Shown: one piece after another, positions 25,826 to 64,000 of the stretch
Layout of the letters: each line of letters opens with the position of its first letter
Numbering within the stretch: position 1 is the stretch's first letter
Assembly (NCBI GenBank): GCA_963820525.1
Contig: CAWGAA010000003.1
Span: 800,001-864,000, forward strand
DNA length: 64,000 nt
Reading direction: 5' to 3'
From: an uncultured Spirochaetota bacterium
GTDB lineage: Bacteria; Spirochaetota; Spirochaetia; SZUA-6; Fen-1364
Translations under genes and position numbers: made by a program
Notes under the pieces: model-generated
The model's database searches: none
The model's input: only the letters and a program-made list of their open reading frames with translations
What the model was told of the DNA's origin: nothing

Positions 25826-26623
25826 TTAGAGCGGGCTCTTGATCTTGGCGGCGGTTCTCTCCGTGACATGGAGATAGATCATAGTCGTTTTGACGCTCTT
25901 ATGCCCCAGAAGATCCTTTATCGAGCGTATGTCGATGCCGTTTGAAAGCAGAGCGGTAGCGAAAGAATGCCGTAGAGTGTGGCATGATGCCCGTTTTTGG
26001 ATGCCGCTGCCTTCATAGGCATGGGCGAAAATCGCCTGGACCGTTCTCTTGGTGTACGGTTTCCGGCTTTGGGTGAGGAAAAGGAACTCCTTGCCGTCCC
26101 GATCCCGTACAAGAGCCTTTAACTCCGCCGCGAGGGCTTCCGAGAATACCGTGATCCGGTCCTTGTTCTGCTTTGAATTGACTATCCGGACAGTCAGGGA
26201 AGGGAAATCAAGATCCCGGATTTTAATCCTCACGAGCTCACTCACCCTGAGGCCCGAGCCGAACAGCATGGAGATCATCAGGCGGTGCTTCGGGTTACGG
26301 ATCCTTGACAGAAGAATCAGAATGTCGGCTTTTTCCAGGAACGAGGGAAGCCGGTGTCTTGGACGGGCCTTTTCCAGCTTGTAGGGGCAGGGTTTTTTCA
26401 AAACCAGCTCGTAAAACAGCTTGATTGCGTTCCAGGCGATTCGTCTGGCTTCCTGCGATTCATAGGTGGACAGGAACCGGGATATCCTTTCCACAGGCTC
26501 GAATGCGGTCTTCTTGGAAAACTCAAGGAAGCGGCTTAAGCCGTTGCGATACGCCCTGATGGTGTTCGTTGCATATCCGCGGTTCCTCGATTCCCGAAGG
26601 AAAGCGTCCAGATAATGGTCCAT
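25826..26623 (-). CDS. Tyrosine recombinase, putative cassette integrase lacking the IntI-specific insertion
   Basis: GLRVSE, K, HTLRH, LLGH and TTMIY catalytic set; C-terminal SPL; divergent from cassette array. Confidence 0.93.
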   Translation of the reverse strand: MDHYLDAFLRESRNRGYATNTIRAYRNGLSRFLEFSKKTAFEPVERISRFLSTYESQEARRIAWNAIKLFYELVLKKPCPYKLEKARPRHRLPSFLEKADILILLSRIRNPKHRLMISMLFGSGLRVSELVRIKIRDLDFPSLTVRIVNSKQNKDRITVFSEALAAELKALVRDRDGKEFLFLTQSRKPYTKRTVQAIFAHAYEGSGIQKRASCHTLRHSFATALLSNGIDIRSIKDLLGHKSVKTTMIYLHVTERTAAKIKSPL

Positions 26624-26665
26624 GAAAAGCGCACTCCCCTACCTGTGTATACGGCGGGAACGTGC

Positions 26666-26693
26666 TTGATGATTGGGGAAGATGGTTTATAAT
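26666..26693 (+). promoter_or_regulatory. Putative cassette promoter (Pc-like)
   Basis: TTGATG-16bp-TATAAT pointing into the array. Confidence 0.6.
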
Positions 26694-26707
26694 GAGGCAG
26701 AAAAAGA

Positions 26708-26732
26708 GAAATTCACACACAACGAGTTGAAC
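26708..26732 (+). other. Putative primary attI-like site; crossover G|TTGAAC at 26726
   Basis: Identity with the other three transposase cassettes begins exactly at this GTTGAAC, with no hairpin upstream. Confidence 0.75.
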
Positions 26733-26808
26733 AAAATCGCTCCGCGATGGCTTTCATCAAGCCTTAGTCTTCATTCGCCGCCATGAAAGCAAGACAGATG
26801 TTTCCCGC

Positions 26809-28011
26809 TTGTTATACAGCATGGGCTATATTGAAGCGGCAACGGTTTTTCCAAGACCCAAATTCGAAGTCGCCGATGTTTTCAGACAAAGCACCCAGTT
26901 ACTGAAAGGCATCAGTTATGATCATTGGAAAGTCGTAAACGCAATCATAAACTGCCGCGGTCCGAAATTGGGCGGCCATAAACTTGTTTGCCATGAATGC
27001 GGGTATGAACAGATATCCTATAATTCATGCAGGAACCGGCATTGCCCCAAATGCCAGGCGAGCAAGCAGGCGCAATGGGTTTACGAGCGGACACAAGAGC
27101 TTCTGCCCATAAAATATTTCCATATCGTCTTCACCGTCCCGGCGGTATTGAATTCCCTTATTCTCCAGAATAAAAGAGTGCTCTACGACATTCTCTTTCA
27201 CGCCGCAAACGAGACTCTTCAAGAAGCCGCGGGAAACCCGAAGAATCTCGGCGCGAAGATCGGATTTATCGCCATTCTCCACACCTGGAGCCAAAACCTA
27301 CTTGACCATCCACATCTGCACTGCATTGTTACCGGAGGGGGATTGAGCCGGGATAAATCCGCATGGATTGAAAGCAGGAACAACTTCTTTATCTCGATAC
27401 ACATTCTCAATCGATTGTTCAGAGGTAAATACCTGCATTATTTGAAACAGGCATATGCAGCAAAAGAGTTGAGTTTCTTTGGTAAGTTACGCAAGACAGC
27501 AGAGACAGCCGGGTTTGCAAAGGTGTTGGATGAATGTTATGCGAAAAAATGGATCGTCTACGCCAAAAAGCCGTTTTCCAATCCGTTACGCGTACTGAAA
27601 TATATAGGGCACTATACGCATCGGGTAGCGATCAGCAACAAACGGATATTGAATTTCACCGGCGGAAACGTGAGCTTTATATGGAAGGACTACAGGAATA
27701 GAAACCGGAAAAAGGTAATGACACTTGGCGCCTCCGAGTTCATGAGAAGATTTCTCCTGCATGTGCTGCCGGAAGGATTCAAGCGTATACGATTTTACGG
27801 CCTCTTGAGCAACGGGCACAAAAATGAGAATCTGAAATACATCCGTCGTTTGTTATGCATCGATCTAGAATCTCAACAGCGATCGTATGATTTTTTCTTG
27901 GAAGCGCCTGAGACTATCGAAAAAAGATGTCCCCGCTGCAAGAGCGCGAATATTCAGATTATTGAGCTCCCGCCGGAAAATACCGCTGAAAGTTATTGGA
28001 ACAGCGCGTAA
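26809..28011 (+). CDS. IS91-family (Y2/HUH) transposase, cassette copy 1
   Basis: Zn motifs CHEC and CRNRHCPKC, HUH motif HPHLH, YIGHY; ATG start may be 26821. Confidence 0.92.
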   Translation: MLYSMGYIEAATVFPRPKFEVADVFRQSTQLLKGISYDHWKVVNAIINCRGPKLGGHKLVCHECGYEQISYNSCRNRHCPKCQASKQAQWVYERTQELLPIKYFHIVFTVPAVLNSLILQNKRVLYDILFHAANETLQEAAGNPKNLGAKIGFIAILHTWSQNLLDHPHLHCIVTGGGLSRDKSAWIESRNNFFISIHILNRLFRGKYLHYLKQAYAAKELSFFGKLRKTAETAGFAKVLDECYAKKWIVYAKKPFSNPLRVLKYIGHYTHRVAISNKRILNFTGGNVSFIWKDYRNRNRKKVMTLGASEFMRRFLLHVLPEGFKRIRFYGLLSNGHKNENLKYIRRLLCIDLESQQRSYDFFLEAPETIEKRCPRCKSANIQIIELPPENTAESYWNSA

Positions 28012-28041
28012 TAAAACCCATAGCGCGGGCGGAGCGACTTC

Positions 28042-28236
28042 GTTCAACATAGGGTTTACGCTCCGCTCCCTCCGGTCGCTCCGGGCTTCGCCACATGCCC
28101 CTCTGGCACAGGGCTTGCAGATCAAATCTTCTTACGGTCCTCTAAGATGTGTGGTACACTCTTTTCTATGTTTTGCGGGGCAACCCCTGTGCCAGCCCTT
28201 CGGGACGGGGCATGTCGTAAACCCTTTACGTTATAC
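28042..28236. repeat. Outer attC-like site (transposase subtype)
   Basis: GTTCAAC...GGGTTTACG/CGTAAACCC...GTTATAC with internal stems. Confidence 0.85.
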
Positions 28237-28240
28237 GCCA

Positions 28241-28280
28241 TTGCGCCTTTGTGCATCAGCTGTATAATATGATGTTAGCT
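28241..28280 (+). promoter_or_regulatory. Carrier head: promoter plus inner attI-like site
   Basis: TTGCGC-16-TATAAT-ATGAT-GTTAGCT. Confidence 0.7.
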
Positions 28281-28337
28281 CCTTTAAAGAATTTTTACGT
28301 CATTATTATATCTCTGGATTTTGCTTAGAAATACTAT

Positions 28338-28838
28338 ATGTCACAGAAAATGATGACTAGAAATTATCGGTCTGCAATAATTATTTTTATTGGCATTTTG
28401 TTAGTATCGCTTTTGGGATATTTTTTAATAACCAAGAACACTATTGTTGAAGTGTTAAAGTATAGAGAATTCAAAAATGAGCTTGATTCTTTTATAAAGA
28501 ATTTGAATAAGAATGAATTTGAAAAAGCTGCCTATCAATTCCATTTTCTTGAAGCACAAAGTATTGGAATTGAACAATTAAAAAGAAACTTAGAGTCTAT
28601 AAAGAATAGATTTGGTAAAATAATTAATGGATCTAATAATATAACTTATTTAAAAACTAATAATGATAATATTTCATATTATGCCATTATTAGAATAGAG
28701 AATCCAAAAAATGATGGTGAAGTATTAGAAATAGTTGTGTATGAAGAAAATGGATACGGGAAACCTACTATTACTATATTTAATGGAATTGAATTTAAGG
28801 ATGAAATAAATCTCACAGATTGGGTAATAATGAATTAA
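28338..28838 (+). CDS. AT-rich membrane-anchored hypothetical protein (inner cassette)
   Basis: 166-aa ORF with N-terminal TM, followed by attC. Confidence 0.75.
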   Translation: MSQKMMTRNYRSAIIIFIGILLVSLLGYFLITKNTIVEVLKYREFKNELDSFIKNLNKNEFEKAAYQFHFLEAQSIGIEQLKRNLESIKNRFGKIINGSNNITYLKTNNDNISYYAIIRIENPKNDGEVLEIVVYEENGYGKPTITIFNGIEFKDEINLTDWVIMN

Positions 28839-28846
28839 GGAAAAGG

Positions 28847-28965
28847 AGCTAACATGCTGTTGAACTTGACGCCTAACACTTGTTGCAGCCATAGTTGCCT
28901 ACGTCCATAGAACCTTATTGCTTTTGGCTTCGGGTCGGCGGCGCAAGTTAACAGCGTTGTTATCT
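28847..28965. repeat. Inner classical-type attC
   Basis: AGCTAAC-ATGCT-GTTGAACTTG...CAAGTTAAC-AGCGTT-GTTATCT, extrahelical base in L box. Confidence 0.85.
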
Positions 28966-29013
28966 GGCCCCAAGTCCTTTCAAGATTGCCGTGGCCAATA
29001 GGAGAACCGATGA

Positions 29014-31026
29014 ATGAGTGCCAAACGTGCAGCTGTGACCGCAGGACTCCATCCAGAAGCGAACCTTTCACATTTCACTCCGTACGAGCAGGAACTAATC
29101 CAGAAGCAGTTCTGCACCGAGTTCTATGTAACAAACCAAGGCGGCGTAGTCGAGCTGAGCAGGACATCGGTCTACAGATTCTTCTTGATCAAGCCAACCA
29201 CAGTCTATCAGGAGCAGTTTAACCTCGATCGGGAGATTGTCGTTCTCTTTAGCGACTATCCGAATTTTGAGCCGCGTACGCTGGATGCTATTGAGGAAGC
29301 TTATAAAAGGTACCAGGAACTCCGCATAGAGAAGATATGCTCAGTTCTTATAAGTAGAGATGTGGAAATTGAGCAAAAAATAAAAAGCCTCCTGAAAAAC
29401 ACCAGTGAGAGCCAGATCATCGTTCCATTCCACTACAAGGAGTTGCAGACAGTCTCCGACCTATATTTCTTCAGGAATAGATTCAAAGCCCATTTCTACA
29501 GCAGAGACCTTTTCTCATATGAATCTGCACTCAAGAAGGACCTCTACTTTTTCGGCAGGAGTGATCTCGTTCACAAGGTAGTCAATAGACATCGCAGTGG
29601 AGAGAATTCCGCACTTTTCGGGCTGAGGAAAACCGGTAAGACCTCTATCATTTTCGGAATACGCAGGGTGCTAAACGCGACTGAGGAGAACTCTGTCTAC
29701 ATCGACTGCCAGGACTCCGGCTTCTATTTAAAGAGATGGAATCACGCCCTTCGCTATATAATCGACGAAATAAAATCTCAAAACCACGCGTCCGTAATCT
29801 TGTCCGATGAATCCGAATACACTGAGGATGGCTGTAGCGCGGCTTTTGCAAGAGACATATCAAAGTTGCGCAAGAAACTCGGCGGTAAGCCGATAATGAT
29901 CATTTTCGATGAGCTGGAGCGTATAACATTCGGGCTTTCTTCGGCCGAGCATTGGAAAACGGGGAAGGACTTCGTCCATTTCTGGAGAACTCTTAGGTCT
30001 CTGTTTCAGAAGCTGGAGAGCGTTTTTACCTATCTTATTGTTAGCACGAACCCTCGCTCGGTAGAGACGCCTATGGTCAACGGTGACGAGAATCCCATCT
30101 TTTCTCAAGTTCCATACGAATATATCCCGCCATTTGATGTACCTCAGACGAAGGAAATGGTCGAACGCTTGAGCCAGATCATGGGCCTTCACTTCGATGA
30201 GATTCTGTATTCGAAATTGACGGAGGATTTTGGAGGCCATCCATTTCTCATTCGCATGGTTTGCAGCGCGATCAATCGCCTTTGTGACTCAACGCGGCCA
30301 GTGAGAGTCGATAAAACCGTTTACGAGAAAGGCAAGCAACTCTTCAATAAAGAATATAGTAGCTACATAGAGATGGTGGTCACTGTTCTTCGAGAGAGCT
30401 ATTCCGACGAGTTCGAAATGCTCAAGTTCCTAGCGCTTGGCGACATACCGACCTTTATGGAGTTCGCCTCCGCATCTCGAGAGTACACAAATCACCTTCT
30501 CGGCTACAACATCGTTGATCAAAATAACCAATCCTACTCCTTCAAGATCGAATCGATCAGGGAGTATCTGATATCCGAGAACAAGTACAAGAAGCTAGGC
30601 TTAACAAAGAAAGAGATGCTTGCCGAGATATCCGAACGTCGCAATGAACTGGAACCCCGGCTGAGAAACTTGGTGCGCCAAATTCTGCTTGTGGCAATCG
30701 GCGAGTCTGCCGCCGCCACCCTGGTTCGCAATATCTACGGTGATCCGAGAAAAACTAGATATGCTGGCCTTTCCTACAAAGAATTGTTTAATCCAAATAG
30801 GGTAGATATCTATTGGGACGATCTTCAAAAGATTGTCTTAGCCGAATGGGACCACTTCCAGAATGTGTTCGAAAGAGACAGAGAGGCGTTCATCGTGAAT
30901 ATGAAGGCCGTCAACAAGTATCGGTCTGACGCACACGCAAAGGATATCTCTCCGGAAGAGATGGAACTCTTTCGAGTGTGCGCGACGAGATTGGAGACGC
31001 AGATACGAAACTTCTTCGGAGGATAG
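29014..31026 (+). CDS. P-loop ATPase (STAND/AAA-like) with possible C-terminal HEPN-like domain
   Basis: GLRKTGKTS Walker A, IIFDELE Walker B, GGHPF, C-terminal YRSDAH. Confidence 0.75.
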   Translation: MSAKRAAVTAGLHPEANLSHFTPYEQELIQKQFCTEFYVTNQGGVVELSRTSVYRFFLIKPTTVYQEQFNLDREIVVLFSDYPNFEPRTLDAIEEAYKRYQELRIEKICSVLISRDVEIEQKIKSLLKNTSESQIIVPFHYKELQTVSDLYFFRNRFKAHFYSRDLFSYESALKKDLYFFGRSDLVHKVVNRHRSGENSALFGLRKTGKTSIIFGIRRVLNATEENSVYIDCQDSGFYLKRWNHALRYIIDEIKSQNHASVILSDESEYTEDGCSAAFARDISKLRKKLGGKPIMIIFDELERITFGLSSAEHWKTGKDFVHFWRTLRSLFQKLESVFTYLIVSTNPRSVETPMVNGDENPIFSQVPYEYIPPFDVPQTKEMVERLSQIMGLHFDEILYSKLTEDFGGHPFLIRMVCSAINRLCDSTRPVRVDKTVYEKGKQLFNKEYSSYIEMVVTVLRESYSDEFEMLKFLALGDIPTFMEFASASREYTNHLLGYNIVDQNNQSYSFKIESIREYLISENKYKKLGLTKKEMLAEISERRNELEPRLRNLVRQILLVAIGESAAATLVRNIYGDPRKTRYAGLSYKELFNPNRVDIYWDDLQKIVLAEWDHFQNVFERDREAFIVNMKAVNKYRSDAHAKDISPEEMELFRVCATRLETQIRNFFGG

Positions 31027-31033
31027 TGGGGAT

Positions 31034-31147
31034 GGATAGCATGCGGTTGAAGCTGACGGTTTGCTTTTGTCTGATCGGTTCGCCATATCATGTTATAGAC
31101 TGTACTCTTATTAGCTGACTCGACGCAACTTAACCGCGTTTTTATAG
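31034..31147. repeat. Inner attC, degenerate
   Basis: GCGGTTGAAGCTG / CAACTTAACCGC arms; R boxes are GGATAGC and TTTATAG. Confidence 0.7.
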
Positions 31148-31196
31148 GCTGTAAATGGTAGAAAAAGGAAGTAGTTTACTACAAAGGCGCATCGGC

Positions 31197-31330
31197 GCAT
31201 AACGGCACATTGGCGTTCCGGTGCCCTACGGGCACCTTCGGGCTCCGCGGCGCTGCGGCGCGCCGCTCCGCCAAATGTCCCTCGGCCCTGTTGGCCTCTG
31301 GCCACTTCGCCAATGTGCTGCACGTTAAGT
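31197..31330. repeat. Outer attC-like site
   Basis: GCATAAC...GCACATTGGCG/CGCCAATGTGC...GTTAAGT. Confidence 0.85.
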
Positions 31331-31457
31331 GTAATGCCCGACGGAGCGCCCGCGGTATCGGACGACTAAGGTCGTCTTGCTTTGCATCCTTGGCTTGGAT
31401 AGGAGAAATGAATTGACATTAACATGAGATTCAACTTCTATTTATTGGGGTCACTGA

Positions 31458-34400
31458 TTGCCTGACGAAAATAATCAAGTTGATCATGAAAAACTGAATG
31501 CTCTTTTCGCTGAACAATACCGGTGGGCAAGTCTATCTGTAACCATCGAAGAGATTGCGAAAGAAAACAAATTACTTATTCGTGATCTTTCCAGATACGA
31601 TCAAACCATCGCTATTCCTCTCCTGGCAAGTCTCTTAACACTTCCCGAACTGCAATCGCATTGTATTCGTCTTGAAATTCTCAGTTGCCTTGGCAGTGGT
31701 GTATTGCCGCGGCAGTAAGAAAGCAAATATAAAGCAATTAGTTCGTTGGTTCTCCCAGATCGGCAAATCGCAATGTGTGACGGGTGAAGATCCGGCTGAA
31801 GATGTCTTCGTCTACCTAGTGCAGGATGTGCACGGAGACTACCGGCTTATCGGAGGTATATGGGAGTCGGCTGGCTTCTATACTCAGCGCGTTCTCGATG
31901 TAATTTCTACGATGCCTAACACCGGACAATTCGAGCAAATCAAGAGGAGTGTCCGCGCACTACTTATAATCTCCGATATAGTATGTGGCAAAGCTGGGCT
32001 GAACCGCTATCAGCTCGGCTCTGATGAACACCATTCGAAACTATCGCCGCGCATACTCGCAGGGCACAAACCCCTAATATCTAGTGTGACGATCTCCTTT
32101 GCCGAGCTCAATGAACACAGTATCACACCTGACGATATCGAGCCATTCCTCTTGCATCCGCAGATGAAAAAAGACTTACCTCTGCAGCAGATCGGCCTTA
32201 GCTATTTGGATCGCTGCCCGTTGATCGTGCATGGCGTGACGCATCTAACAGTTGCGCTCCCCTCAGCGCTATCCATTGCCATGCGAGACTACGTGATCGC
32301 GAAAGTTATTGAAGGAGGGCTAGTCAACACCTTTGATAGCGTACTTGCGCAGAACTATTCGAGCCTATTCTTCGACACACCCCTCCTTGGCGGGCCATTA
32401 CGAGCGCCAGTCCATTGGAAGAAGTCTGGCGCGCACCAATGGTCGAATTTCTACCTCAGGGTTGATGAGGGCTACTTCATTTCGTTCCACCTCTTCTTGC
32501 CATCGGTACAGACGCATCCCAATGGCGGTTTCAAGGGCGTTTATCGAGACGAGGGCGCCCTGACCGAAACGCTGCAAACCTCGATCAATGAGATTCTCAA
32601 TCATTTCGAAGGGCGGGTCGATTTCAAAGAAGGGCTCGTTGTTCTGGTCGGCTGCGGCTGGGGTAAAGGCTATGCCACCCAAGCTATTGAACTGGAACAT
32701 GAACATTGGCGATTCGAAAGTATGTCTGCGGCTGACCTCGTGCGACTCAGTTGGCTTGGAGATATGAACCCTGCCTACTTCTGGCGCATCCAAGACGGGC
32801 TGGAAGCTGTGAGGAAGGCTGGAGTCCAGATCGTCAATCCCAATGGGATTCTGAATCTGATTGGATGGGTGCGCAGCAACGACGGCCACTTCGTGCCACA
32901 TGCACAGTTACCGGAGGGCGAGATTTCGCCAGAACGGCCTTTGACGCTATACCCGCCCCTCAACCTTCTGCGGGAAGTGCGCGCTGACTCCGATCGTGGT
33001 TATGACCGCCACTGTGCGATTGATAACACTGGGACTTGCCACAACGTCCAGCATGCCTCGTCGAAGCCGTTCTTCAGCAGTGAAAGTGCTAGGCGCGTTT
33101 ATGCCTCTATGGACGACGTGCGAAACAGGACACTTACGTCAGTGTATGAGGGCAAGCTCAAACTTTGGCTGTCCGTGGCCACACCCAACATTGCTGAAAG
33201 AGATGTCGAGTACGGGCTTTGGGAAATGGCGGGCGAATGGCTGCATCGCATAGGAAATGCTCTTGATGAGCGCGGCGAGACTACAACTGAGACGCATAGT
33301 CTCAGGGTCTATATTGAATTCCGTGACGGCAATCCAACAAAGGAAAAGGGTGAAAAACCGGCTCTCAAAGACCTTTTCCCACTCTGTACAATCGAACCTC
33401 ATAGTGAGCCTAGCGCATGCAAAGCCGTCTTCCAAGCCGGATTTCTGGCTGGCTTTCGCATTGCCGAGAACGTTGCTGAGCGTCTCTTTGTTCGCACGCT
33501 ATCGCGGGCTTACCTGCATCTCCTTGGCGTAGAAGATTGCGACGGCGAGGCCGAGGCTGTTGAGGCCCTCGTTGTGCCCAACGATTTTGCTCGCAGCTTC
33601 CATCTTTTTCAAACGCAGCAATTCATAGATTATATCCGGGATACGCTACCCAAAAAGCTCATTGCCATCGATCCGGTGGATGATGCCGCAACGAGAATAG
33701 GTCTTGGCGGGCGTGTCCTTGAAAAAGGGCAGAGCAACAAGATCGAAGGCAGAGAAGCATGCACGGTTTTTCTTGGTAAGGTCGTCGATACCTTGCTAGC
33801 TGAGATATTCGAGGCTCTCGCCGCGTTCAGCCGGCTTTCAACACTCAAACGCCTTGTGGCCAATTGCGAGAAAGCAAATGCCGAGGAAGACCATTGGAAG
33901 CGGACATCAGCCGCTGTCCCAGGCCTACACGGCAACGAGCCAGATACCACCGATCGCTTTATCAAGCAGCTATCGAAGTTTGCTGGTGCTGCAATCGCAA
34001 GCCGTATCTTAACTGAGATCGCTTTATGCGTCTGTCCGGCTGGGGATGCCATACAGATATCGGATATCGAACTGAGCAAATTGATCGCACGCGCTGCGTT
34101 GGTGGTACGAATTGGTGGTCTATCAGATGCTATCTATTACAACGCACTCCCTCCGGAAGCTCACGATCTCGCCATTAGGCGATGTACTTTTTCGCGATGA
34201 ATTTGGGCACTTGGTGGTTGAACCTATGCTGGCTCGCGTGATTGGGGAAAAACTCATTGCCGACGCACCTTTGCAGAAGAGGAACTATGAAGATCCAGAA
34301 TTCTTACCTCGGCCAAAGAAAAGATTGGTGATGAATTCTGGAACATCTGGAATCTCGAGATGGATTTCAGCATAGATGAAGCCCGAAACATTATTGGCGC

Positions 34401-51429: not shown

Positions 51430-51433
51430 GCCA

Positions 51434-55718: not shown

Positions 55719-55780
55719 TTCTTTTTGCTAAATGATCATGCATGTTGCAAAGCGCGGCAATATGATGGTAGCCTCCTAAA

Positions 55781-56962: not shown

Positions 56963-56976
56963 GCAGAAGTACAGAA

Positions 56977-57088: not shown

Positions 57089-57135
57089 TGAAGAGATCTG
57101 GATAGAAATACATTATTATAATCTGGCGCAACGGC

Positions 57136-57205
57136 CTATAACCGCCCGTAATGTGCTTCGGTGCCCGCAAGAGCACCGAAGCACATTACGGGCAGCACGT
57201 TATAC
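57136..57205. repeat. Outer attC-like site (minimal unbranched subtype)
   Basis: CTATAAC...GCCCGTAATGTGCTTCGGTGC/GCACCGAAGCACATTACGGGC...GTTATAC. Confidence 0.85.
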
Positions 57206-57283
57206 GACATTTTTTGTTGCAAGGTTCTTTTCCATGTTTATACTGTTTAGTAATCGCCCTGCATTTATCGGAGGTTAATCTTT

Positions 57284-58036: not shown

Positions 58037-58088
58037 TTTGCTAATCATACTACCGGAAGTCGGCTCATGACGGGTAACAAAAAACGCC

Positions 58089-58222
58089 GTATAACAGCGC
58101 GTAATGTGCATCGCCGCCCTACGGGCGGCTCGGGCTCCGCGGCGCTGCAGCGCGCCGCTCCGCCACATGGCCCTCGCCCTTGTTGGGCTCGGGCCACGTC
58201 ACATACGCGCGGCTCGTTGAAC
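58089..58222. repeat. Outer attC-like site
   Basis: GTATAAC...GCGCGTAATGTG/CACATACGCGC...GTTGAAC. Confidence 0.85.
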
Positions 58223-58298
58223 AAAATCGCTCCGCGATGGTTTTCATCGAGCCCTAGTCTCCATTCGCCGCCCTGAAAGCAAGACAGATGTTTCCCGC

Positions 58299-59501
58299 TT
58301 GTTATACAGCATGAGCTGTATTGAAGCGGCAACGGTTTTTCCAAGACCCAAATTCGAAGTCGCCGATGTTTTCAGACAAAGCACTCAGTTGCTAAAAGGC
58401 ATCAGTTATGATCAGTGGAAAGTCGTAAACGCAATCATAAACTGCCGCGGTCCGAAATTGGGCGGCCATAAACTTGTTTGCCATGAATGCGGGTATGAAC
58501 AAATATCCTATAATTCATGCAGGAACCGGCATTGCCCCAAATGCCAGGCGAGCAAGCAGGCGCAATGGGTTTACGAGCGGACACAAGAGCTTCTACCCAT
58601 AAAATATTTCCATATCGTCTTCACCGTCCCGGCGGTATTGAATTCCCTTATTCTCCAGAATAAAAGAGTGCTCTACGACATTCTCTTTCACGCCGCAAAC
58701 GAGACTCTTCAAGAAGCCGCGGGAAACCCGAAGAATCTCGGCGCTAAGATCGGGTTTATCGCCATTCTCCACACCTGGAGCCAAAACCTACTTGACCATC
58801 CACATCTGCACTGCATTGTTACCGGAGGGGGATTGAGCCGGGATAAATCCGCATGGATTGAAAGCAGGAACAACTTCTTTATCTCGATACACATTCTCAA
58901 TCGACTGTTCAGAGGTAAATACCTGCATTATTTGAAACAGGCATATGCAGCAAAAGAGTTGAGTTTCTTTGGTAAGTTACGCAAGACAGCAGAGACAGCC
59001 GGGTTTGCAAAGGTGTTGGATGAATGTTATGCGAAAAAATGGATCGTCTACGCCAAAAAGCCGTTTTCCAATCCGTTACGTGTACTGAAATATATAGGGC
59101 GCTATACGCATCGGGTAGCGATCAGCAACAAACGGATTTTGAATTTCACCGGCGGAAACGTGAGCTTTATCTGGAAGGACTACAGGGATAGAAACCGAAA
59201 AAAGGTAATGACACTTGCCGCCTCCGAGTTCATGAGAAGATTTCTCCTGCATGTGCTGCCGGAAGGATTCAAGCGTATACGATTTTACGGCCTCTTGAGC
59301 AACGGGCACAAAAATGAAAATCTGAAATACATCCGTCGTTTGTTATGCATCGATCTAGAATCCCAACAACAATCGTTTGAATCTTTCTCGGAAGCACCTG
59401 AGATCATTGAAAAACGATGCCCGCGCTGCAATAGTGCTAATATACAAATCATTGAACTTCCACCGGAAGAGGCATCTGAAAGTTATTGGAACAGCGCGTA
59501 A
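58299..59501 (+). CDS. IS91-family (Y2/HUH) transposase, cassette copy 4
   Basis: Protein identical to copies 2 and 3 in the ORF track. Confidence 0.92.
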   Translation: MLYSMSCIEAATVFPRPKFEVADVFRQSTQLLKGISYDQWKVVNAIINCRGPKLGGHKLVCHECGYEQISYNSCRNRHCPKCQASKQAQWVYERTQELLPIKYFHIVFTVPAVLNSLILQNKRVLYDILFHAANETLQEAAGNPKNLGAKIGFIAILHTWSQNLLDHPHLHCIVTGGGLSRDKSAWIESRNNFFISIHILNRLFRGKYLHYLKQAYAAKELSFFGKLRKTAETAGFAKVLDECYAKKWIVYAKKPFSNPLRVLKYIGRYTHRVAISNKRILNFTGGNVSFIWKDYRDRNRKKVMTLAASEFMRRFLLHVLPEGFKRIRFYGLLSNGHKNENLKYIRRLLCIDLESQQQSFESFSEAPEIIEKRCPRCNSANIQIIELPPEEASESYWNSA

Positions 59502-59531
59502 TAAAACCCATAGCGCGGGCGGAGCGACTTC

Positions 59532-59727
59532 GTTCAACATAGGGTTTACGCTCCGCTCCCTTTGGTCGCTCCGGGCTCCACCACATGCCCCTCTGGCACA
59601 GGGGTTGCAGGTCAAATCTTCTTACGGTCCTCAAAGATGTGTGGTACACTCCTGTCTATGCTTTGCGGGGGCAACCCCTGTGCCAGCCCTTCGGGACGGG
59701 GCATGTCGTAAACCCTTTACGTTATGG
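59532..59727. repeat. Outer attC-like site (transposase subtype)
   Basis: GTTCAAC...GTTATGG. Confidence 0.85.
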
Positions 59728-59731
59728 GACA

Positions 59732-59772
59732 TTGCGTCTTTGAGCATGTACAGTATAATCGTAATGTTAGGC
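59732..59772 (+). promoter_or_regulatory. Carrier head: promoter plus inner attI-like site
   Basis: TTGCGT-16-TATAAT-CGTAAT-GTTAGGC. Confidence 0.7.
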
Positions 59773-59813
59773 CCTGACCGAATTTATTCACACCCGTAAG
59801 GAGATTTCTCACA

Positions 59814-60560
59814 ATGGACATCCCACGTATATTCAACATCACTGAAAGTGCTCACCGCATCCACAACCCGATCACACCCGAAAAGCTTGCCACTCTCGGC
59901 GCTGCGCTGCGTCTGGAATCGGGGGCCCGAGTGCTCGACCTCGGCAGCGGTTCGGGGGAGATGCTATGCACCTGGGCACGCGATCACGGCGTCATCGGCA
60001 CCGGCATCGACATGAGCCAGTTGTTCACCGAGCAAGCGAGACTCCGTGCTGAAGAACTCGGCGTCGCCGATCAAGTCAAGTTCATCCATGGCGATGCTGC
60101 CGGCTATGTCTCTGACGAGAAGGCCAGTGTGGCAGCCTGTGTCGGTGCCACTTGGATCGCCGGTGGAGTCGTCGGCACTATCGAGCTTCTGGCGCGGAGC
60201 CTGCGCACCGGAGGGATCATCCTCATCGGCGAGCCCTACTGGCGGCAAACACCGCCGACGGAAGATGTTGCCAAGGGGTGTCTTGCCAACTCAATCTCCG
60301 ACTTTCTCATGCTTCCAGAACTTCTCGCGTCTTTCGGCCACCTTGGCTACGACGTCGTTGAAATGGTTCTGGCTGACCAAGACGGCTGGGACAGATACGA
60401 GGCGGCCAAATGGCTCACCATGCGCCGATGGCTTGAAGCCAATTCCGGCGACGAGTTCGCGAAAGATGTTCGAGCCAAACTGACCTCGGAACCCGAGCGC
60501 TACGCCGCTTACACGCGTGAATACCTGGGCTGGGGTGTGTTCGCGCTGATGCTGCGCTGA
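59814..60560 (+). CDS. Class I SAM-dependent methyltransferase (YjhP-like)
   Basis: VLDLGSGSGE motif I; MDIPRIF N-terminus and YLGWGVF C-terminus. Confidence 0.88.
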   Translation: MDIPRIFNITESAHRIHNPITPEKLATLGAALRLESGARVLDLGSGSGEMLCTWARDHGVIGTGIDMSQLFTEQARLRAEELGVADQVKFIHGDAAGYVSDEKASVAACVGATWIAGGVVGTIELLARSLRTGGIILIGEPYWRQTPPTEDVAKGCLANSISDFLMLPELLASFGHLGYDVVEMVLADQDGWDRYEAAKWLTMRRWLEANSGDEFAKDVRAKLTSEPERYAAYTREYLGWGVFALMLR

Positions 60561-60698
60561 TGCGTTGGCGCATCCGGCGGATCGTCAACGGCTGTGCCGC
60601 GCAACAGCTGGTGGCTCGCCGAGATGTGATTGCGCCTGAATTCATTTCTTATGGTCTAGTCATCCGTGCAATCAACAGAAAGCTCTGTCTCAAGCAGG

Positions 60699-60817
60699 GC
60701 CTAACGAATCGTTGCAGCTCTCCGCCGGAGCGCTGCTCGTGCAGTGTGGGCTTCAGCCGGGTAATGCGGTCAGAACGTGGTTTCATGTCGGGGCGTGAGC
60801 TGAACTCTATGTTACCT
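60699..60817. repeat. Inner classical-type attC
   Basis: GCCTAAC-GAATC-GTTGCAGCTC...GAGCTGAAC-TCTAT-GTTACCT. Confidence 0.85.
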
Positions 60818-60868
60818 AGCGATACTCATGCTAATGGGGTGACATTCAAAGACGCAGCGTCCCATAAC

Positions 60869-62585
60869 GAGTCTGTAGGAAAATATAGCCCAAAAGACAA
60901 CAGTTCTCCTTCAAACTCGATTCAAAAACGATTTATGAATGATCAGAAACCAAAAACCACTCTATCGATATAGATCATCGGACAATCGGTGTCCATTTTC
61001 TTTTCCATCATGCATTCACTCCAGACATCGCCTTTGAAATCTTTCCTATATTATGAACCATGCAATATAATAGCCATTGAATATTCACTTTCGCTTTCGT
61101 TCTCAGAGTGAATCTGTTCAGTCTCTTATGGAATGTGATATTCGCAAACACTGGTTCGATGATTGCCATCCGTCTTGAATATAAATCCCTGACCTCCGGC
61201 CGGTCGATCTTCTGGATCATTTGTGCCGAATAATTGGTGGAATTATCCTTGTCATCTATAAAGAGTGTCCGCTTGCCGCTGCTATTCTTTTTGCGATGAA
61301 AGCATTTATTTGTAAACCGACACCCCTTACAGTCGGACGCTTTGGATTGATAACGATGCCCCGAAGATCCATGAAGTATTGCATGTCCTATATGTTTCAG
61401 TGTTTTCCCGTTGGGACATGTATACGTGTTTGTTTTCTCATCATATGTGAAATTTTGAAATCCAAACTTATACTCGATACCCGAATGATCTTTCCTGTCC
61501 ACGAAGCGCTCGTCTCGTTTTCGAAAGTTGTAGTCCGGGATGATCGCCTCGATTTTCTTATCCGCGGCTGTTTTTAGGTTTTCTTCACAGAAGTAATTCG
61601 TGTCCGCAAGTACGGTCTTTCCTGAAAGAGGTTCTTCCTTGTCGGTGATGGCTTTCAGATTCTCTTCCGCCATTTCAAGAACGGGCTTGAATGTCCCATG
61701 TTCTTGCCCTTTCCCATAGGCTTCGGTGGCTATAATGACCTGGTTTTGTTCATCCGCGAGGGCGATCCCGTTATACCCCTGGATCATTCCGTGAGAAGTC
61801 TTGATCTTTGCGCTATCGTTATCCGTGATATTCGACTGTATTTCCTTGCCACGGTTGCCCTGTTTCGGCGTTTCTGTTTTAAGGAAGTCCTCGATGCGCT
61901 TGATCTTTGAGTCGATCCTATCAATGGCTTTCTTCTTTGGCGAAACTTCGGATCCTGATGCGGTTTCAGCTCTGTCGGTTACAGTATGCTTTTGAATGAG
62001 CAGTTTTACCGTTCTTTCAAGTTTTTCTTTTCTCCTTTTGAGATCCCTGAAGGTGCCGCTCGATTCTTTGGACGCGTTGGACGGCAGCTTGCATCCGTCA
62101 ATCGCAAACAGCTTTCCGCCGATGAGCTCCATTTCCTGGCACACCATGAGGATTTTCAGAAATATGCCGGCGATTTCATCCTTCATCGATGAGATGAAAT
62201 CCGCTATGACCGTGAAATGCGGGATGGAGTTTGCCGAAAGCGCTTTGGCTATGATATTCGTCTCGCAAAGCTCCATGATCCGTCGTGATGAAAATATGCC
62301 TCTGGAGTAGGCGAAAAGAATGATTTTCAGTAAAACCCGAGGATCATATGCAGGAGCACCGGTAAGATCGTTCTTATACTTTGAATCGAGCGCTGATAAA
62401 TCTATTTTCTCGTTGATCAGGTGATTGAGCGTGTATTCGAAGGTATCCATAAGCAGTTGCTCGCTGAACTGGACGACAATAAACTCGCCTTGATCCTGAT
62501 TATGATCCTTATACCGCGCCATGAAGCTATTGTGCGCTGGATATCAAATAGCGTAAAGTAGGCGCGTGGCTTTTCCTACAGAATC
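60869..62585 (-). mobile_element. IS1182-family insertion sequence inside an outer att site
   Basis: IRs GAGTCTGTAGGAAAA / TTTTCCTACAGAATC; AAC duplicated on both flanks. Confidence 0.88.
61008..62522 (-). CDS. IS1182 transposase
   Basis: GAPAYDPRVLLK, SSRRI, AIDGCK, LADTNY and IEPVFANI motifs. Confidence 0.92.
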   Translation of the reverse strand: MARYKDHNQDQGEFIVVQFSEQLLMDTFEYTLNHLINEKIDLSALDSKYKNDLTGAPAYDPRVLLKIILFAYSRGIFSSRRIMELCETNIIAKALSANSIPHFTVIADFISSMKDEIAGIFLKILMVCQEMELIGGKLFAIDGCKLPSNASKESSGTFRDLKRRKEKLERTVKLLIQKHTVTDRAETASGSEVSPKKKAIDRIDSKIKRIEDFLKTETPKQGNRGKEIQSNITDNDSAKIKTSHGMIQGYNGIALADEQNQVIIATEAYGKGQEHGTFKPVLEMAEENLKAITDKEEPLSGKTVLADTNYFCEENLKTAADKKIEAIIPDYNFRKRDERFVDRKDHSGIEYKFGFQNFTYDEKTNTYTCPNGKTLKHIGHAILHGSSGHRYQSKASDCKGCRFTNKCFHRKKNSSGKRTLFIDDKDNSTNYSAQMIQKIDRPEVRDLYSRRMAIIEPVFANITFHKRLNRFTLRTKAKVNIQWLLYCMVHNIGKISKAMSGVNA

Positions 62586-62717
62586 AACAGCGGTTAATGC
62601 GCATCGCCGCCCTTCGGGCGGCTCGGGCTTCGGCGCGCTGCGCCGCGCGCCTCAGCCACATGGCCCTTCGGCCTTGTTGGCCTCAGGGCCACGTCTCATA
62701 ACCGCGGCACGTTATGC
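62586..62717. repeat. Outer attC-like site (left box separated by IS1182)
   Basis: AAC-AGCGGTTAATGCG...CTCATAACCGC...GTTATGC. Confidence 0.82.
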
Positions 62718-62721
62718 GCCA

Positions 62722-62761
62722 TTGCACCAGCTTAGATTTTCTGCATAATATGATGTTGGGC
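62722..62761 (+). promoter_or_regulatory. Carrier head: promoter plus inner attI-like site
   Basis: TTGCAC-16-CATAAT-ATGAT-GTTGGGC. Confidence 0.65.
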
Positions 62762-62856
62762 GCACTTCTAATTGTGATGTCACCGTCGCATGCCAGTGGC
62801 GGTTTTTAACGAATGATCGAGTGGCTAACCTCCGCGCGTAGGGGTATACTCAAGAC

Positions 62857-63459
62857 ATGCCAAATATCCTCGCAACGCTCTCAGTCTCTCACATCGTGCA
62901 GGCAATCATCGTAGGCGGCGTGCTGGCGTTTCTCACGGCAAATATCATTATGAACGCCGCGGTCAAGACCGTGACGACGACCGTCAATGGTTGGAGCACC
63001 ACCTTAAAATGCGGCCAACCCGGCAATGGCATCCTCCTGCGGGCCGCATGCGCTAAAATCCTGCCCGCCGTCAATGTGGCGCAAGAGGCCGCGTACTGGA
63101 CGACGACCATCGACAGTGCGGGGCAGACGCTGAACGGCAAGCACGATTACGTCCTGCGCTTTCCGGCAGGACAGCTCCCGCCGAACGATGCCTTTTGGTC
63201 GCTCACGATGACCGATGTTGTCGGTTACATGGTGAGTAACCCGATCGATCGCTACAGCGTCGGCGACCGATCCGGCCTCGTGCCGAACGCCGATGGCTCA
63301 ATCGACATTTATATCCAGAGCACGGCTCCGGCAGGCCATGAGGCCAGCTGGCTGCCTGCGCCGGCAGGCAACTTCAAACTGATGCTCCGCGCGTATCGGC
63401 CCGGCCGCGCTGTCCTCGACGGCGAGTACCACGTGCCGCCAGTCCTTAAGGTGCAATGA
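62857..63459 (+). CDS. DUF1214-like protein
   Basis: GQLPPNDAFWSLTM, NADGSIDIYI, WLPAP and LMLRAY motifs. Confidence 0.82.
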   Translation: MPNILATLSVSHIVQAIIVGGVLAFLTANIIMNAAVKTVTTTVNGWSTTLKCGQPGNGILLRAACAKILPAVNVAQEAAYWTTTIDSAGQTLNGKHDYVLRFPAGQLPPNDAFWSLTMTDVVGYMVSNPIDRYSVGDRSGLVPNADGSIDIYIQSTAPAGHEASWLPAPAGNFKLMLRAYRPGRAVLDGEYHVPPVLKVQ

Positions 63460-63460
63460 T

Positions 63461-64000
63461 ATGAACAGGTTTATTCTGAAACACAAATACCTCGTTACAT
63501 TCGTCATCCTGGCAATCCTTGCATGGTTCGTCTACAGGCAGTTCATTGTGGTGAGGAGCCCACTCTTTCCGTTCGCCGCAGTGGTAGCCATAGTATGGGG
63601 ACTCGGCACGTTCGTTTTCCTTTATTTTTGGCCGCCCATCACGTACAGTGCCTACAAAAGAGCGATCGTTCAGCATGGGTTCGGCGGCGGTCCAATCCCC
63701 GTCAATACGCTTTACGCCATGCCCCATCTCGCTTCGCCCTCGGCGTCAGGCTCCAGCCTATTAGCAACGGGGACCAACGACGTGCTCTACATCGGTGGCT
63801 GGCTCGACCTCTCCAAAGGGCCGCGAGTCCTGCACGTGCCGGACTTCTCCAGGCGTTACTACAGTGTGCAGTTCACCGATCCCTCGGACGGCGCCGACTT
63901 CGCCTATGTCGGCACGCGTACCACGGGTACGCAGGCGGGAGACTATCTCATTACGGGGCCAGGTTGGAAAGGACAGGTACCGAGCGGTATGACGCAGATA
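63461..64000 (+). CDS. DUF1254-like membrane protein (runs off window end)
   Basis: Manual translation: MNRFILK...NDVLYIGGWLDLSKGPRVLHVPD...RYYSVQFTD...GPGWKG. Confidence 0.8.
   Translation, partial: MNRFILKHKYLVTFVILAILAWFVYRQFIVVRSPLFPFAAVVAIVWGLGTFVFLYFWPPITYSAYKRAIVQHGFGGGPIPVNTLYAMPHLASPSASGSSLLATGTNDVLYIGGWLDLSKGPRVLHVPDFSRRYYSVQFTDPSDGADFAYVGTRTTGTQAGDYLITGPGWKGQVPSGMTQI

Follow-up and report, generated by a model that had tools for sequence, protein, structure and literature searches.

Organisation of the locus

The window analysed here (the whole 64,000-nt stretch of DNA) carries a gene for a 265-aa tyrosine recombinase and, about 100 nt away and divergent from it, a promoter-like site, an attI-like GTT and 17 co-oriented sites, referred to below as N-type sites. 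The features are as follows.

Platform left edge, 25765..25825, plus strand: two exact GAAATTCACA motifs (25776 and 25813) flanking a small ATAAC...GTTAT palindrome
Recombinase gene P0001, 25826-26623, minus strand: IntI-like tyrosine recombinase of 265 aa without the IntI-specific insertion
Candidate Pc, 26666-26693, plus strand: sigma-70-like promoter TTGATG-16-TATAAT facing the array, a consensus match only
attI-like region, 26693..26725, plus strand: contains the third GAAATTCACA and ends in the crossover GTT at 26723-26725
Cassette 1, 26726..28232, plus strand: IS91-family HUH/Y2 transposase gene (26809-28011); N-type site 28046-28232
Cassette 2, 28233..31326, plus strand: shell (R' extension, TTGCGC-N-TATAAT, inner GTT at about 28274) with two canonical cassettes, the first a 166-aa ORF with canonical attC 28847-28965, the second a 670-aa STAND-like NTPase with degenerate canonical attC 31034-31147; N-type site 31201-31326
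Cassette 3, 31327..35547, plus strand: ORFs of 842 and 295 aa, neither with a Pfam match; N-type site 35423-35547
Cassettes 4-6, 35548..38997, plus strand: cassettes 4 and 6 are IS91 (sites 36865-37052 and 38810-38997); cassette 5 has 440 nt and no long ORF (N-type site 37365-37492)
Cassettes 7 and 8, 38998..46403, plus strand: each starts with a shell; encoded proteins are, among others, an N6/N4 DNA methylase and a DUF2971 protein; weak or degenerate canonical attC 39847-39951, 41612-41727 and 44944-45056; N-type sites 43844-43934 and 46273-46403
Cassettes 9-13, 46404..51425, plus strand: among the encoded proteins are an 8xMP membrane protein, an Ig-domain protein and an HNH endonuclease; N-type sites 47231-47358, 47455-47584, 48672-48801, 49117-49245 and 51344-51425
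Cassette 14, 51426..57201, plus strand: shell, then an HSDR_N protein; IS630-like insertion (52800-53921, minus strand); Eco57I-like methylase with canonical attC 55605-55718; Fic protein with canonical-type site 56977-57088; closing 62-nt N-type site 57140-57201
Cassettes 15 and 16, 57202..59723, plus strand: 15, GIY-YIG protein, site 58093-58218; 16, IS91, site 59536-59723
Cassette 17, 59724..62713, plus strand: shell, methyltransferase cassette with canonical attC 60699-60817; DDE transposase insertion (61008-62522, minus strand); N-type site 62586-62713
Start of cassette 18, 62714..64000, plus strand: shell, then DUF1214 and DUF1254 genes

The GAAATTCACA 10-mer has three exact copies in the window, all on the plus strand and all within less than 1 kb of the recombinase gene. 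At the left edge, where GC content drops from about 0.60-0.66 to 0.37-0.55, likeness to a paralogous platform copy on C1 also ends, and positions 25765-25790 are similar to the left half of the attI-like region. The recombinase of the C1 copy has an internal deletion, while the TTGATG-16-TATAAT sequence is preserved there; in the window a single sigma-70-like match was found against a shuffle mean of 1.0, i.e. no excess. The GTT at 26723-26725 bounds cassette 1 on the left and is the exact point from which the four IS91 cassette copies are alike; motifs akin to the attI-like region occur upstream of homologues in L104 and L105. As in integrons, an attI thus lies beside the integrase gene with insertion at G|TT. 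A contig of public run X2 joins 26725 to 28230, cassette 1 being absent or replaced exactly at two GTTs; this joint is a single contig of depth 3.7, flagged 'between: not known' and compatible with any enzyme as its maker, and the junction was not found in the assembly.

The IS91-family transposase gene is present in four copies in the window (NF033538, 420-428 bits), each in a cassette with GTT at both boundaries and its own 187-188-nt site. Two of cassettes 9-13 are short and have no long ORF, and the R'' of cassette 17 mismatches the start of its own cassette. The array extends past the window to at least about C3:891443. The sequence-only reading, which had described a recombinase divergent from a promoter and an attI-like GTT, together with HUH-transposase cassettes and a two-tier array, was borne out in this layout, the promoter by consensus match, and several N-type cassettes proved to be shells holding canonical cassettes. 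Its count of at least 19 co-oriented units was right in order of magnitude, the figures obtained here being 17 N-type sites with three strong and five weak canonical-type ones.

A short recombinase outside the canonical IntI clade

The 265-aa recombinase matched Pfam Phage_integrase (E 1.6e-39), and its nearest solved structure was the Vibrio integron integrase VchIntIA (2a3v), with query residues 12-170 and 195-265 aligned to chain residues 13-179 and 247-317, respectively. The insertion region held 24 residues against 67 in 2a3v, and the IntI model TIGR02249 matched in two stretches (profile 3-178 and 238-312), with 179-237 unmatched. In a 94-row alignment this region comprised 24-29 residues in the short forms, 66-73 in 43 canonical IntI and 33 in the two Xer-like proteins of the genome; the estimate made from the letters, of only about 25 residues where IntI has its insertion, agrees with the 24-25 counted. 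The predicted model was confident and compact over the shortened region, with no helix between H162-172 and H192-206.

Identity as an ordinary IntI was rejected on the TIGR02249 score (191 bits, below the curated cut-off of 265), the missing insertion and a position outside the canonical IntI clade. An Xer resolvase (XerC, XerD, XerA) was likewise rejected, all scores lying under their cut-offs (XerA, 201.6 bits against 220; XerD, 157 against 329.6; XerC, 152.4 against 335) and separate Xer-like genes being present on C1. The short-recombinase family holds about 60 protein clusters of 265 aa (65-90% identity); its length and catalytic residues are kept across many clusters, down to 47% identity, and R126, K151, H215, R218, H241 and Y250 were invariant in 16/16 aligned members. 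When 16 members were put to the curated IntI cut-off test, the best E-value was 8.6e-66. In phylogenetic analysis the short clade (12 rows; SH-aLRT 98-100) fell outside the canonical IntI clade whether the insertion columns were kept or removed, and the 43 canonical IntI formed one clade (SH-aLRT 100) that excluded it, although a tree uniting the short clade with the genome's two IntI was not formally rejected by the AU test (p 0.069) and the trees did not fix the order in which the clades branch. The separate class proposed in the sequence-only reading, which depended on the protein not scoring as an ordinary IntI, is supported: the recombinase is a member of a conserved 265-aa family.

Structure of the N-type sites

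Each N-type site consists of AAC, 0-2 nt, a perfect stem of 11-12 bp around a branched loop of three hairpins, a bulge of 4-5 nt and GTT, the bulge being one-sided (0-2 x 4-5 nt). A covariance model run with filters off found 17 such sites in the window, all on the plus strand and none upstream of the recombinase gene, and a simple grammar scan over both strands of the 5.05-Mb genome gave 40 matches, 16 of them inside C3:828046-876364 on the plus strand. Across 24 aligned sites, 97.4% of 348 pair cells were paired and 8/11 stem pairs showed compensatory changes; in 500 shuffles neither the pairing nor the covariation score of the real sites was reached once, and sliding the register lowered pairing to 22-49%.

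Each cassette opens with 18-21 nt that repeat, in reverse complement, the bases directly before its own N-type site. At position 11 of this R extension the R' side has A and the reverse complement of R'' has G, so that the top strand carries an A·C mismatch where the bottom strand carries a G·T wobble. This pattern occurred in 16/17 window cassettes and in 6/6, 2/3 and 2/2 cassettes of three other loci. Folding of the reconstituted site with DNA parameters favoured the bottom strand in 17/17 cassettes (mean difference 5.7 kcal/mol). Because of the stem covariation, the bottom-strand G·T wobble and this stability bias, the data point to a folded single strand as the substrate. In its co-oriented cassettes, each closed by an AAC...GTT hairpin whose R'' and R' are complementary, the array is that of an integron, whereas the extrahelical bases and the unpaired central spacer on both arms are absent from the N-type sites.

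Canonical integron parts in the same genome

Elsewhere in the genome lie two intact canonical IntI genes (448.6 and 410.7 bits), with 161 canonical attC sites beside IntI-B and four beside IntI-A. All 167/167 canonical sites of the genome pair only with a 1-nt bulge, the extrahelical base, in keeping with the earlier suggestion that the array has an att grammar of its own, with several perfectly paired stems. None of the 25 N-type model matches fell in the IntI-A or IntI-B arrays, including the 140-kb canonical array. This segregation of the two site types within one genome is an internal control. With both systems side by side in a single genome, a clean two-by-two specificity comparison is possible.

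Inside the window, the canonical-attC model found three strong and five weaker or degenerate canonical-type sites, all on the plus strand. They relate to the shells, which stand at the start of many N-type cassettes and consist of an R' extension, the promoter-like TTGCGC-N-TATAAT and an inner GTT resembling the attI of IntI-B. In cassettes 2, 17 and 14, the inner GTT together with 7-12 nt matches, in reverse complement, R'' of the canonical attC that follows. Of six occurrences of the shell pattern in the genome, five lie at N-type cassette starts, and the motif ATAATAT-N1-3-ATGTT occurs four times in the genome, including the IntI-B attI and two shells. Canonical cassettes may have been inserted at the inner GTT; since the shells hold such cassettes, the short enzyme would then shuffle super-cassettes that are themselves small canonical arrays.

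Co-occurrence of short recombinase and N-type sites

Among 92 genomes of the order, which are related and not independent samples, N-type matches occurred in 9/11 with the short enzyme and 5/81 without it, and five of the nine positive genomes are independent of the model, since the other four (G000, G050, G051 and G028) supplied its sites. The two short-enzyme genomes without an N-type match were G075 and G086, and no N-type site was found in the 28 genomes of the order with canonical IntI only. A canonical IntI was also present in 7/11 short-enzyme genomes; none was found in the other four (MAGs, 87-95% complete).

Ten metagenome loci of the short family had at least 500 nt upstream, and N-type matches were found in seven of these and not in the remaining three. 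All 14/14 metagenome matches lay upstream and on the divergent strand, though several loci hold 6-10 kb downstream, and the same arrangement was seen in L100, L101, L102, L009 and L010. Altogether, at least 12 loci of other genomes or metagenomes show the short gene adjoining an N-type array in divergent orientation, so that the neighbouring arrays to be looked for beside homologues according to the sequence-only reading do exist. On C1, two smaller N-type clusters have no intact recombinase.

Discussion

The anatomy, covariation, strand bias, co-occurrence and cassette-level polymorphism described above are consistent with an integron-like cassette platform that is probably run by its own recombinase, an IntI relative of Xer length without the I2 helix. 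Like integrons, including the sedentary chromosomal ones, it has a promoter-like site, an attI-like site and a long array of co-oriented cassettes, all divergent from the recombinase gene, and a G|TT crossover; a hairpin site at each cassette's 3' end (AAC...GTT, R'/R'' complementarity) with the bottom strand favoured; and cargo of lower GC than the surrounding chromosome, with many defence-type and unknown genes. Unlike integrons, the recombinase lacks the insertion and falls outside the canonical clade; the sites, where integrons have extrahelical bases and a two-sided spacer, show a perfect 11-12 bp stem and a bulge of 0-2 x 4-5 nt, and they have a loop of three hairpins and R segments complementary over 18-21 nt with a wobble at a fixed position; and many cassettes bring their own promoter-like element.

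The canonical integrases of the genome offer another account, in which the array is a CALIN served in trans by IntI-A or IntI-B while the short recombinase does some other job, such as Xer-like resolution or local inversion. The two clusters on C1 without an intact recombinase do resemble CALINs. In favour of this account, both canonical genes are intact, canonical-type attC sites occur inside the array, most short-enzyme genomes co-carry a canonical IntI and the I2 helix is held to have enabled single-strand recombination (PMC7790495). Here, however, a related recombinase adjoins the array and co-occurs with the site type, being beside and divergent from N-type arrays in locus after locus; genomes with canonical IntI only, as well as the 140-kb canonical array, are without N-type sites; four short-enzyme genomes, albeit incomplete MAGs, show no canonical IntI; and the N-type sites have no extrahelical bases for a canonical IntI to read. 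We consider this account unlikely.

In the IS91 family, some elements also bring a tyrosine recombinase ORF, and an IS91-family transposase is the first gene beside the recombinase both here and in the C1 copy, so the recombinase could belong to such an element and the hairpins be IS ends. Against this, tblastn with the transposase matched 0/13 homologous loci, three IS91 copies of the window have no adjoining recombinase, and the transposase gene lies inside an ordinary GTT-bounded N-type cassette whose kind of site is shared by 13 non-IS cassettes, all of which makes an IS91 origin barely credible. A decayed, inactive IntI that has lost its insertion, with hairpins that are relics or unrelated repeats, would fit scores below every curated cut-off (IntI, XerA, XerD) and the C1 copy with its internal deletion; it is nevertheless very improbable, given a length and catalytic residues conserved over many clusters, a clade separate from canonical IntI, a confident and compact model over the shortened region, sites with compensatory changes and strand-specific wobble, and a population polymorphic at a cassette boundary (26725/28230).

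For the platform with its own recombinase, we propose that the short enzyme would bind the folded bottom strand of each cassette's site, which would present a pair of arms with an unpaired, asymmetric centre between them. The R stem (AAC/GTT, lengthened by as much as about 20 bp when the cassette is a free circle) would form one arm and the 11-12 bp L stem, whose length may fit an Xer-type binding arm, the other; in the centre, 5 nt would lie on the cleaved side against 0-2 nt opposite. At G|TT a single strand would be swapped, the partner being either the attI-like site (26723-26725) in double-stranded form or the site of another cassette; replication would resolve the product, and the bulge and the bottom-strand G·T wobble may take the strand-choosing role of the extrahelical bases and I2 helix.

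A parallel to the proposed mechanism is the XerCD/CTX system, where recombinases without I2 act on a single-strand hairpin that mimics a two-arm core site with an imperfect centre, and where one strand is exchanged and replication resolves. The mechanism proposed above is alike in pairing an I2-less enzyme with a single-strand hairpin and one-strand exchange; in the CTX case, unlike here, host enzymes act on a phage genome at a single chromosomal target, and no dedicated recombinase gene lies beside a cassette array. The integration of folded single-stranded CTX-phage DNA by XerCD at dif is mentioned in PMC7790495.

Messier and Roy (2001) is reportedly the work cited for the IntI insertion in attC recombination. 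The insertion is held necessary for that reaction (PMC4792948 and PMC7790495), and its gain is presented in PMC7790495 as the step turning a double-strand recombinase into a single-strand one. An 'integron-like' subgroup of simple tyrosine recombinases was described by Smyshlyaev et al. 2021 (PMC8138268), so insertion-less IntI relatives were already known as sequences; in the portion of that article available, the insertion is termed essential for integron function and insertion-less members are given no cassette arrays or recombination sites. Because its integrase lacks the part thought essential and its sites fold by different rules, the present platform looks like an overlooked sister system to integrons.

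A wider reading, taken jointly, has about even chances of being right: the platform may represent a widespread, unrecognised sister lineage of integrons in which an I2-less, Xer-length IntI relative captures and shuffles cassettes via folded bottom-strand hairpins, bulge and wobble setting the strand, and which is nested with a canonical integron. As parts of this joint reading, the shells would be a mobile 'promoter + attI' loaded with ordinary cassettes by canonical IntI, and kin in a Firmicutes MAG and in Flavobacteriales would comprise I2-less relatives beside arrays with matching asymmetric hairpins. We know of no earlier case of a cassette system packaging the attI and promoter of another, and nested shells would give small canonical arrays a route to move as units.

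Both integron biology and its detection software are built on the IntI-specific insertion; software applying the usual criteria would probably class the present array as a CALIN or overlook it, and it stands for a class of arrays that current surveys would miss or file as integrase-less. If the interpretation is true, the platform would test whether the insertion is necessary or other site geometries can substitute for it, and would offer a candidate relative, or a parallel solution, for tracing the origin of integrons, in which case the I2 helix would be one solution to single-strand cassette recombination and not the sole one.

Sequence, fold and phylogeny of the short recombinase

The open reading frame at 25826-26623 (-) encodes 265 residues and was identified as a tyrosine recombinase (Pfam Phage_integrase, E 1.6e-39) with a SAM-like N-terminal domain. 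It scored below every curated cut-off, including those for archaeal XerA (201.6 against 220 bits), the integron integrase (IntI) profile TIGR02249 (191 against 265) and XerD (157 against 329.6), and thus does not score as an ordinary IntI. TIGR02249 aligned to it as two pieces (profile positions 3-178 and 238-312), as did its closest solved relative by sequence, the Vibrio integron integrase 2a3v, which has 67 residues at the insertion region where the short enzyme has 24; XerA (5hxy) aligned in a single piece. These values bear out the sequence-only reading of a short Y-recombinase with about 25 residues in place of the IntI-specific insertion (I2 helix). In an AlphaFold model built with 16 homologues as input (mean pLDDT 85.8), helices H162-172 and H192-206 follow one another with no helix between them; the connecting stretch was modelled confidently, and a Foldseek search with this model ranked 2a3v and XerA jointly at the top. 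Residues R126, K151, H215, R218, H241 and Y250 were invariant across 16 aligned family members.

In the protein database, ~60 clusters of 265 aa share 65-90% identity with the short enzyme and further ones reach down to 47%, the named clusters being from Spirochaete MAGs or labelled XerD. Two canonical IntI genes, IntI-A and IntI-B, are present in the same genome, both on contig C1 (448.6 and 410.7 bits; 39% and 33% identical to the short enzyme). In a 94-row tree (the trees were quick ones, with SH-aLRT support and without bootstraps), 43 canonical IntI proteins, IntI-A and IntI-B included, formed a single clade (support 100), and the Spirochaete short proteins formed a separate clade (98) outside it, grouped with the protein of a Firmicutes MAG (L011) and a Bacteroidota short clade in a branching order that the tree did not settle; DPANN-archaeal short forms and Xer lay further out. 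A tree without the insertion columns gave the same clades, with support of 100 and 99-100. The insertion region was 24-29 residues long in every short form, against 66-73 in canonical IntI; the two Xer-like proteins of this genome had 33. Given these identities and the separate clade, the short enzyme is unlikely to be a recent deletion derivative of an integrase of this genome; because an AU test with the short clade, IntI-A and IntI-B forced into a single clade gave p 0.069, a tree uniting them is disfavoured, yet not formally rejected.

N-type sites and the array

The N-type sites were first located by repeat and hairpin scans, and a covariance model was then built from 24 of them. With filters off, the model returned 17 sites in the window, every one of them on the + strand and downstream of 26725, the last base of the attI-like GTT (26723-26725), in agreement with the co-oriented array of AAC...GTT hairpin units described previously. 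Each site consists of AAC, 0-2 nt, an 11-12 bp stem, a loop (as a rule of three hairpins), the returning stem, 4-5 unpaired nt ending in C, and GTT, with a total length of 62 to 188 nt. Across the site alignment 97.4% of 348 pair cells were paired, in line with the earlier claim that several stems are perfectly paired and have no extrahelical base; 8 of the 11 stem pairs showed changes on both sides, none of 500 shuffles reached the observed pairing or covariation, and pairing dropped to 22-49% when the register was slid.

When applied to the whole genome, the covariance model found 25 N-type sites, and a plain grammar scan of both strands gave 40 matches, of which 16 fell within C3:828046-876364 (+) and 3 at other IS91 or N-type sites on C1. 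The array extends to C3:891443, two smaller N-type clusters lie on C1 (one at ~2.07-2.10 Mb, spanning C1:2,067,835-2,099,300, and one at 3.085-3.097 Mb), and GC content changes from ~0.60-0.66 left of the platform to 0.37-0.55 within the array. The attI region was not alignable across distant homologues, the recurring element being only a short GAAATTCA..ACA...AGTT motif in two loci around recombinase homologues (L104 and L105). Three exact copies of the 10-mer GAAATTCACA are present in the window (25776-25785, 25813-25822 and 26708-26717), always on the + strand and around the recombinase gene, with the two left copies bracketing a small ATAAC...GTTAT palindrome; these copies may serve recombinase binding or regulation, or may mark where a mobile platform ends.

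Cassette boundaries and strand bias

Four IS91 transposase units are alike exactly from the left GTT to the GTT of their own 187-188-nt sites, which upholds the HUH-transposase cassettes of the sequence-only reading; each site is thus carried along at the 3' end of its gene, as in integrons. In 16 of 17 cassettes, the first 18-21 nt past the upstream GTT (R') are the reverse complement of the bases preceding the AAC of the cassette's own site (R''), which would give a cassette in free circular form a long R stem. This stem has a single kind of mismatch, with A on the R' side and G in the reverse complement of R'', and the A/G mismatch at position 11 recurs in 16/17 window cassettes and next to homologues (6/6 at L101, 2/2 at L138 and 2/3 at L135, where the third is out of register). 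The position-11 pair is an A·C mismatch in the top strand and a G·T wobble in the bottom strand, and on folding of the reconstituted sites with DNA parameters the bottom strand was the more stable in 17/17, by a mean of 5.7 kcal/mol. Since a double-strand reaction gives no reason for such a strand bias, the folded bottom strand of the N-type site is likely to be the substrate.

The IS91 transposase is full length (model positions 2-355 of 356); outside the R extensions, just ~60 nt precede its gene and 15 nt follow it within the cassette. The possibility that the recombinase is an IS91-linked component was rejected because the transposase was found in 0 of 13 homologous loci; the transposase may either help to move the platform or merely ride in it. 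A second platform (L127; C1 ~3,085,116-3,097,300) has, near 3,097,070, the same left-edge motifs, attI-like region and IS91 first cassette. It is 98.3% identical to the window platform over 1662 nt, after which different N-type cassettes follow, and its recombinase gene has a 705-bp internal deletion.

Canonical sites and shells within N-type cassettes

A model of the canonical site (the classical attC with an extrahelical base) identified three good sites on the + strand of the window (28847-28965, 55605-55718 and 60699-60817; 61-84 bits) and five weaker ones (16-44 bits), several with mutated AAC or GTT triplets. Six N-type cassettes (numbered from the attI-like GTT) open with the same shell, a promoter-like element with an inner GTT, in keeping with the two-tier array proposed earlier.

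Shells (promoter-like elements) at the starts of N-type cassettes
28233-28276, shell of cassette 2
38998-39045, shell of cassette 7
43935-43978, shell of cassette 8
51426-51470, shell of cassette 14
59724-59768, shell of cassette 17
62714-62760, shell of cassette 18

The shell (TATAATATGATGTT and variants) comprises, in order, the R' extension, a TTGCGC-like hexamer, ~16 nt, a TATAAT-like hexamer, 5-6 nt and the inner GTT; as the -35-like hexamer lies within the R' extension of the site, shell cassettes would not need one common promoter upstream. For cassettes 2, 17 and 14, the stretch formed by the inner GTT and the following 7-12 nt is reverse-complementary to R'' of the nearest downstream canonical site, and a canonical cassette therefore starts at the inner GTT. 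At IntI-B, the attI sequence is TATAATATAAATGTT; the first cassette comes after it and has a matching R''. The pattern ATAATAT-N1-3-ATGTT occurs four times in the genome (the attI of IntI-B, two shells and one other place), and the full shell pattern six times, with five occurrences at the start of an N-type cassette. The shells may be portable promoter-plus-attI modules, which a canonical IntI would have loaded with ordinary cassettes, and the composite would move, or would once have moved, as a single N-type cassette.

Ordinary DDE transposase genes lie inside cassettes 14 (52800-53921 (-), IS630-like DDE_3) and 17 (61008-62522 (-), DDE_Tnp_1_6 with DUF772), the latter being the cassette whose R'' no longer matches its own start. 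Short N-type cassettes without a convincing ORF were found at 37053-37492 (440 nt), 48802-49245 (444 nt) and 47359-47584 (226 nt); the 440-nt and 444-nt cassettes are ~75% alike, and a relative (G050, locus L101) has four ~445-nt cassettes with near-identical starts repeated in its array. Genes of defence type or acting on DNA are abundant in the cargo at 28338-63459 (STAND-like NTPase, N6/N4 and Eco57I-like methylases, HSDR_N, HNH, GIY-YIG and Fic), and 9 of the 25 ORFs scanned there had no Pfam match.

Canonical integrons of the same genome

A classical-site pattern (YAAC, 5 nt, GTT..., ...AAC, 5-6 nt, GTTR) found 167 sites in the genome: 161 beside IntI-B, 4 beside IntI-A, 1 on contig C2 and 1 in the window. 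A scan for perfect 8-mers beside the canonical IntI genes had returned no sites, the 167 being found when a 1-nt bulge was allowed. One extra base in the 5' arm, the classical extrahelical base, was needed for pairing in 167/167, and two extrahelical bases are visible in their alignment. N-type sites lack the extra base, and none of the 25 genome-wide N-type matches lies within the canonical arrays; two distinct grammars are therefore kept apart in one cell, and the claim of an array with its own att grammar holds. One of 19 window ORFs has a relative in the canonical array, at 34% identity. The array beside IntI-B (C1:683767-824373) is very large (~140 kb with at least 161 classical attC sites, each 107-112 nt long), and its 411-aa integrase has an N-terminal extension of ~90 residues; the second canonical IntI (C1:1954216-1955187) has at least 4 sites.

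Variation at cassette boundaries

Contigs of four public metagenome runs were mapped to 25501-45500 and, being assembled, give no reading of depth, start or strandedness. In run X2, a single contig of depth 3.7 connects 26725 with 28230 (flagged 'between: not known'), the two sides sharing the letters GTT and the shorter one covering 53 nt. Cassette 1 is therefore missing or replaced, with breakpoints precisely at the attI-like GTT and at the GTT of its own site; this junction is not in the assembly, and each half is unique to the window locus. The third IS91 cassette is missing in another joint, a weaker one whose shorter side spans 21 nt, and several loose contig ends begin directly after the GTT of N-type sites. 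Joints inside repeated N-type sites, several 'goes back' ones included, may be assembly paths, and a 25866-to-26572 joint is accounted for by the 705-bp deletion of the second platform on C1. The contig joints show variation at cassette boundaries, whichever enzyme made it.

Co-occurrence of short enzymes and N-type arrays

Among 92 genomes of the order, the short enzyme was found in 11, canonical IntI in 35 and N-type matches in 14; only counts are given because related genomes are not independent. Homologues and arrays co-occurred, a relationship that the sequence-only reading had set as a check: N-type matches were present in 9/11 genomes with the short enzyme (4 of the 9 supplied sites to the covariance model and 5 did not) and in 5/81 without it. 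Among metagenome loci with at least 500 nt upstream, 7/10 had N-type sites, and 14/14 N-type matches in metagenome loci were upstream of the gene and divergent, though several loci hold 6-10 kb downstream. N-type sites were likewise upstream of the homologue gene and on the divergent strand at L100, L101, L102, L009 and L010.

Outside the Spirochaetes two loci, the only ones so checked, were inspected by eye. A Firmicutes MAG (L011; short enzyme 40% identical) has five repeats ~1 kb apart, upstream of and divergent from the gene (within 229-4733), of the form AAC, 3-4 nt, stem ... stem, 7 nt, GTT. A Flavobacteriales MAG (L029; 31%) has 46-nt hairpins with a 3 x 5 loop, downstream and co-oriented (within 12961-15410), in which R' of one site and R'' of the site after it are reverse complements. 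A crude 'stem plus chain' detector flagged 4/38 short-type, 0/41 canonical and 1/79 shuffled loci; it has little sensitivity for canonical arrays either. In a Bacteroidales MAG (L015), the region just upstream of the short recombinase gene belongs to a repeat recurring about every 6 kb (3529-3828, 9756-10055 and 15693-15992) and containing palindromic AAC...GTT elements; it may be a tandem mobile element.

Which enzyme serves the array

The main rival explanation, that a canonical IntI acts in trans on the N-type array, seems improbable to us. Two such integrases are encoded in this genome; N-type matches were found in 0/28 genomes with canonical IntI only, and in one genus with canonical IntI in 15/21 genomes both the short enzyme and N-type matches numbered 0. 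No canonical IntI was found in 4 of the 11 short-enzyme genomes, although its absence there is unproven because these genomes are 87-95% complete. A passage of PMC4792948 describes extrahelical bases as determining strand choice and contacting the integrase-specific I2 helix, and one of PMC7790495 attributes the shift of IntI from double- to single-strand recombination to the gain of that helix. Full-text searches of the literature outside subscription journals and supplements listed no work linking insertion-less IntI relatives to cassette arrays, although such work may exist.

An integron-like array beside a short integrase is thus confirmed as an observation, and its interpretation as a separate cassette-shuffling platform is supported as the best explanation: the array is, quite probably, an integron-like platform run by its own short enzyme. 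The platform would work like an integron, with the short enzyme as its putative recombinase, but it fails the defining tests of integron membership on both the enzyme and the site.
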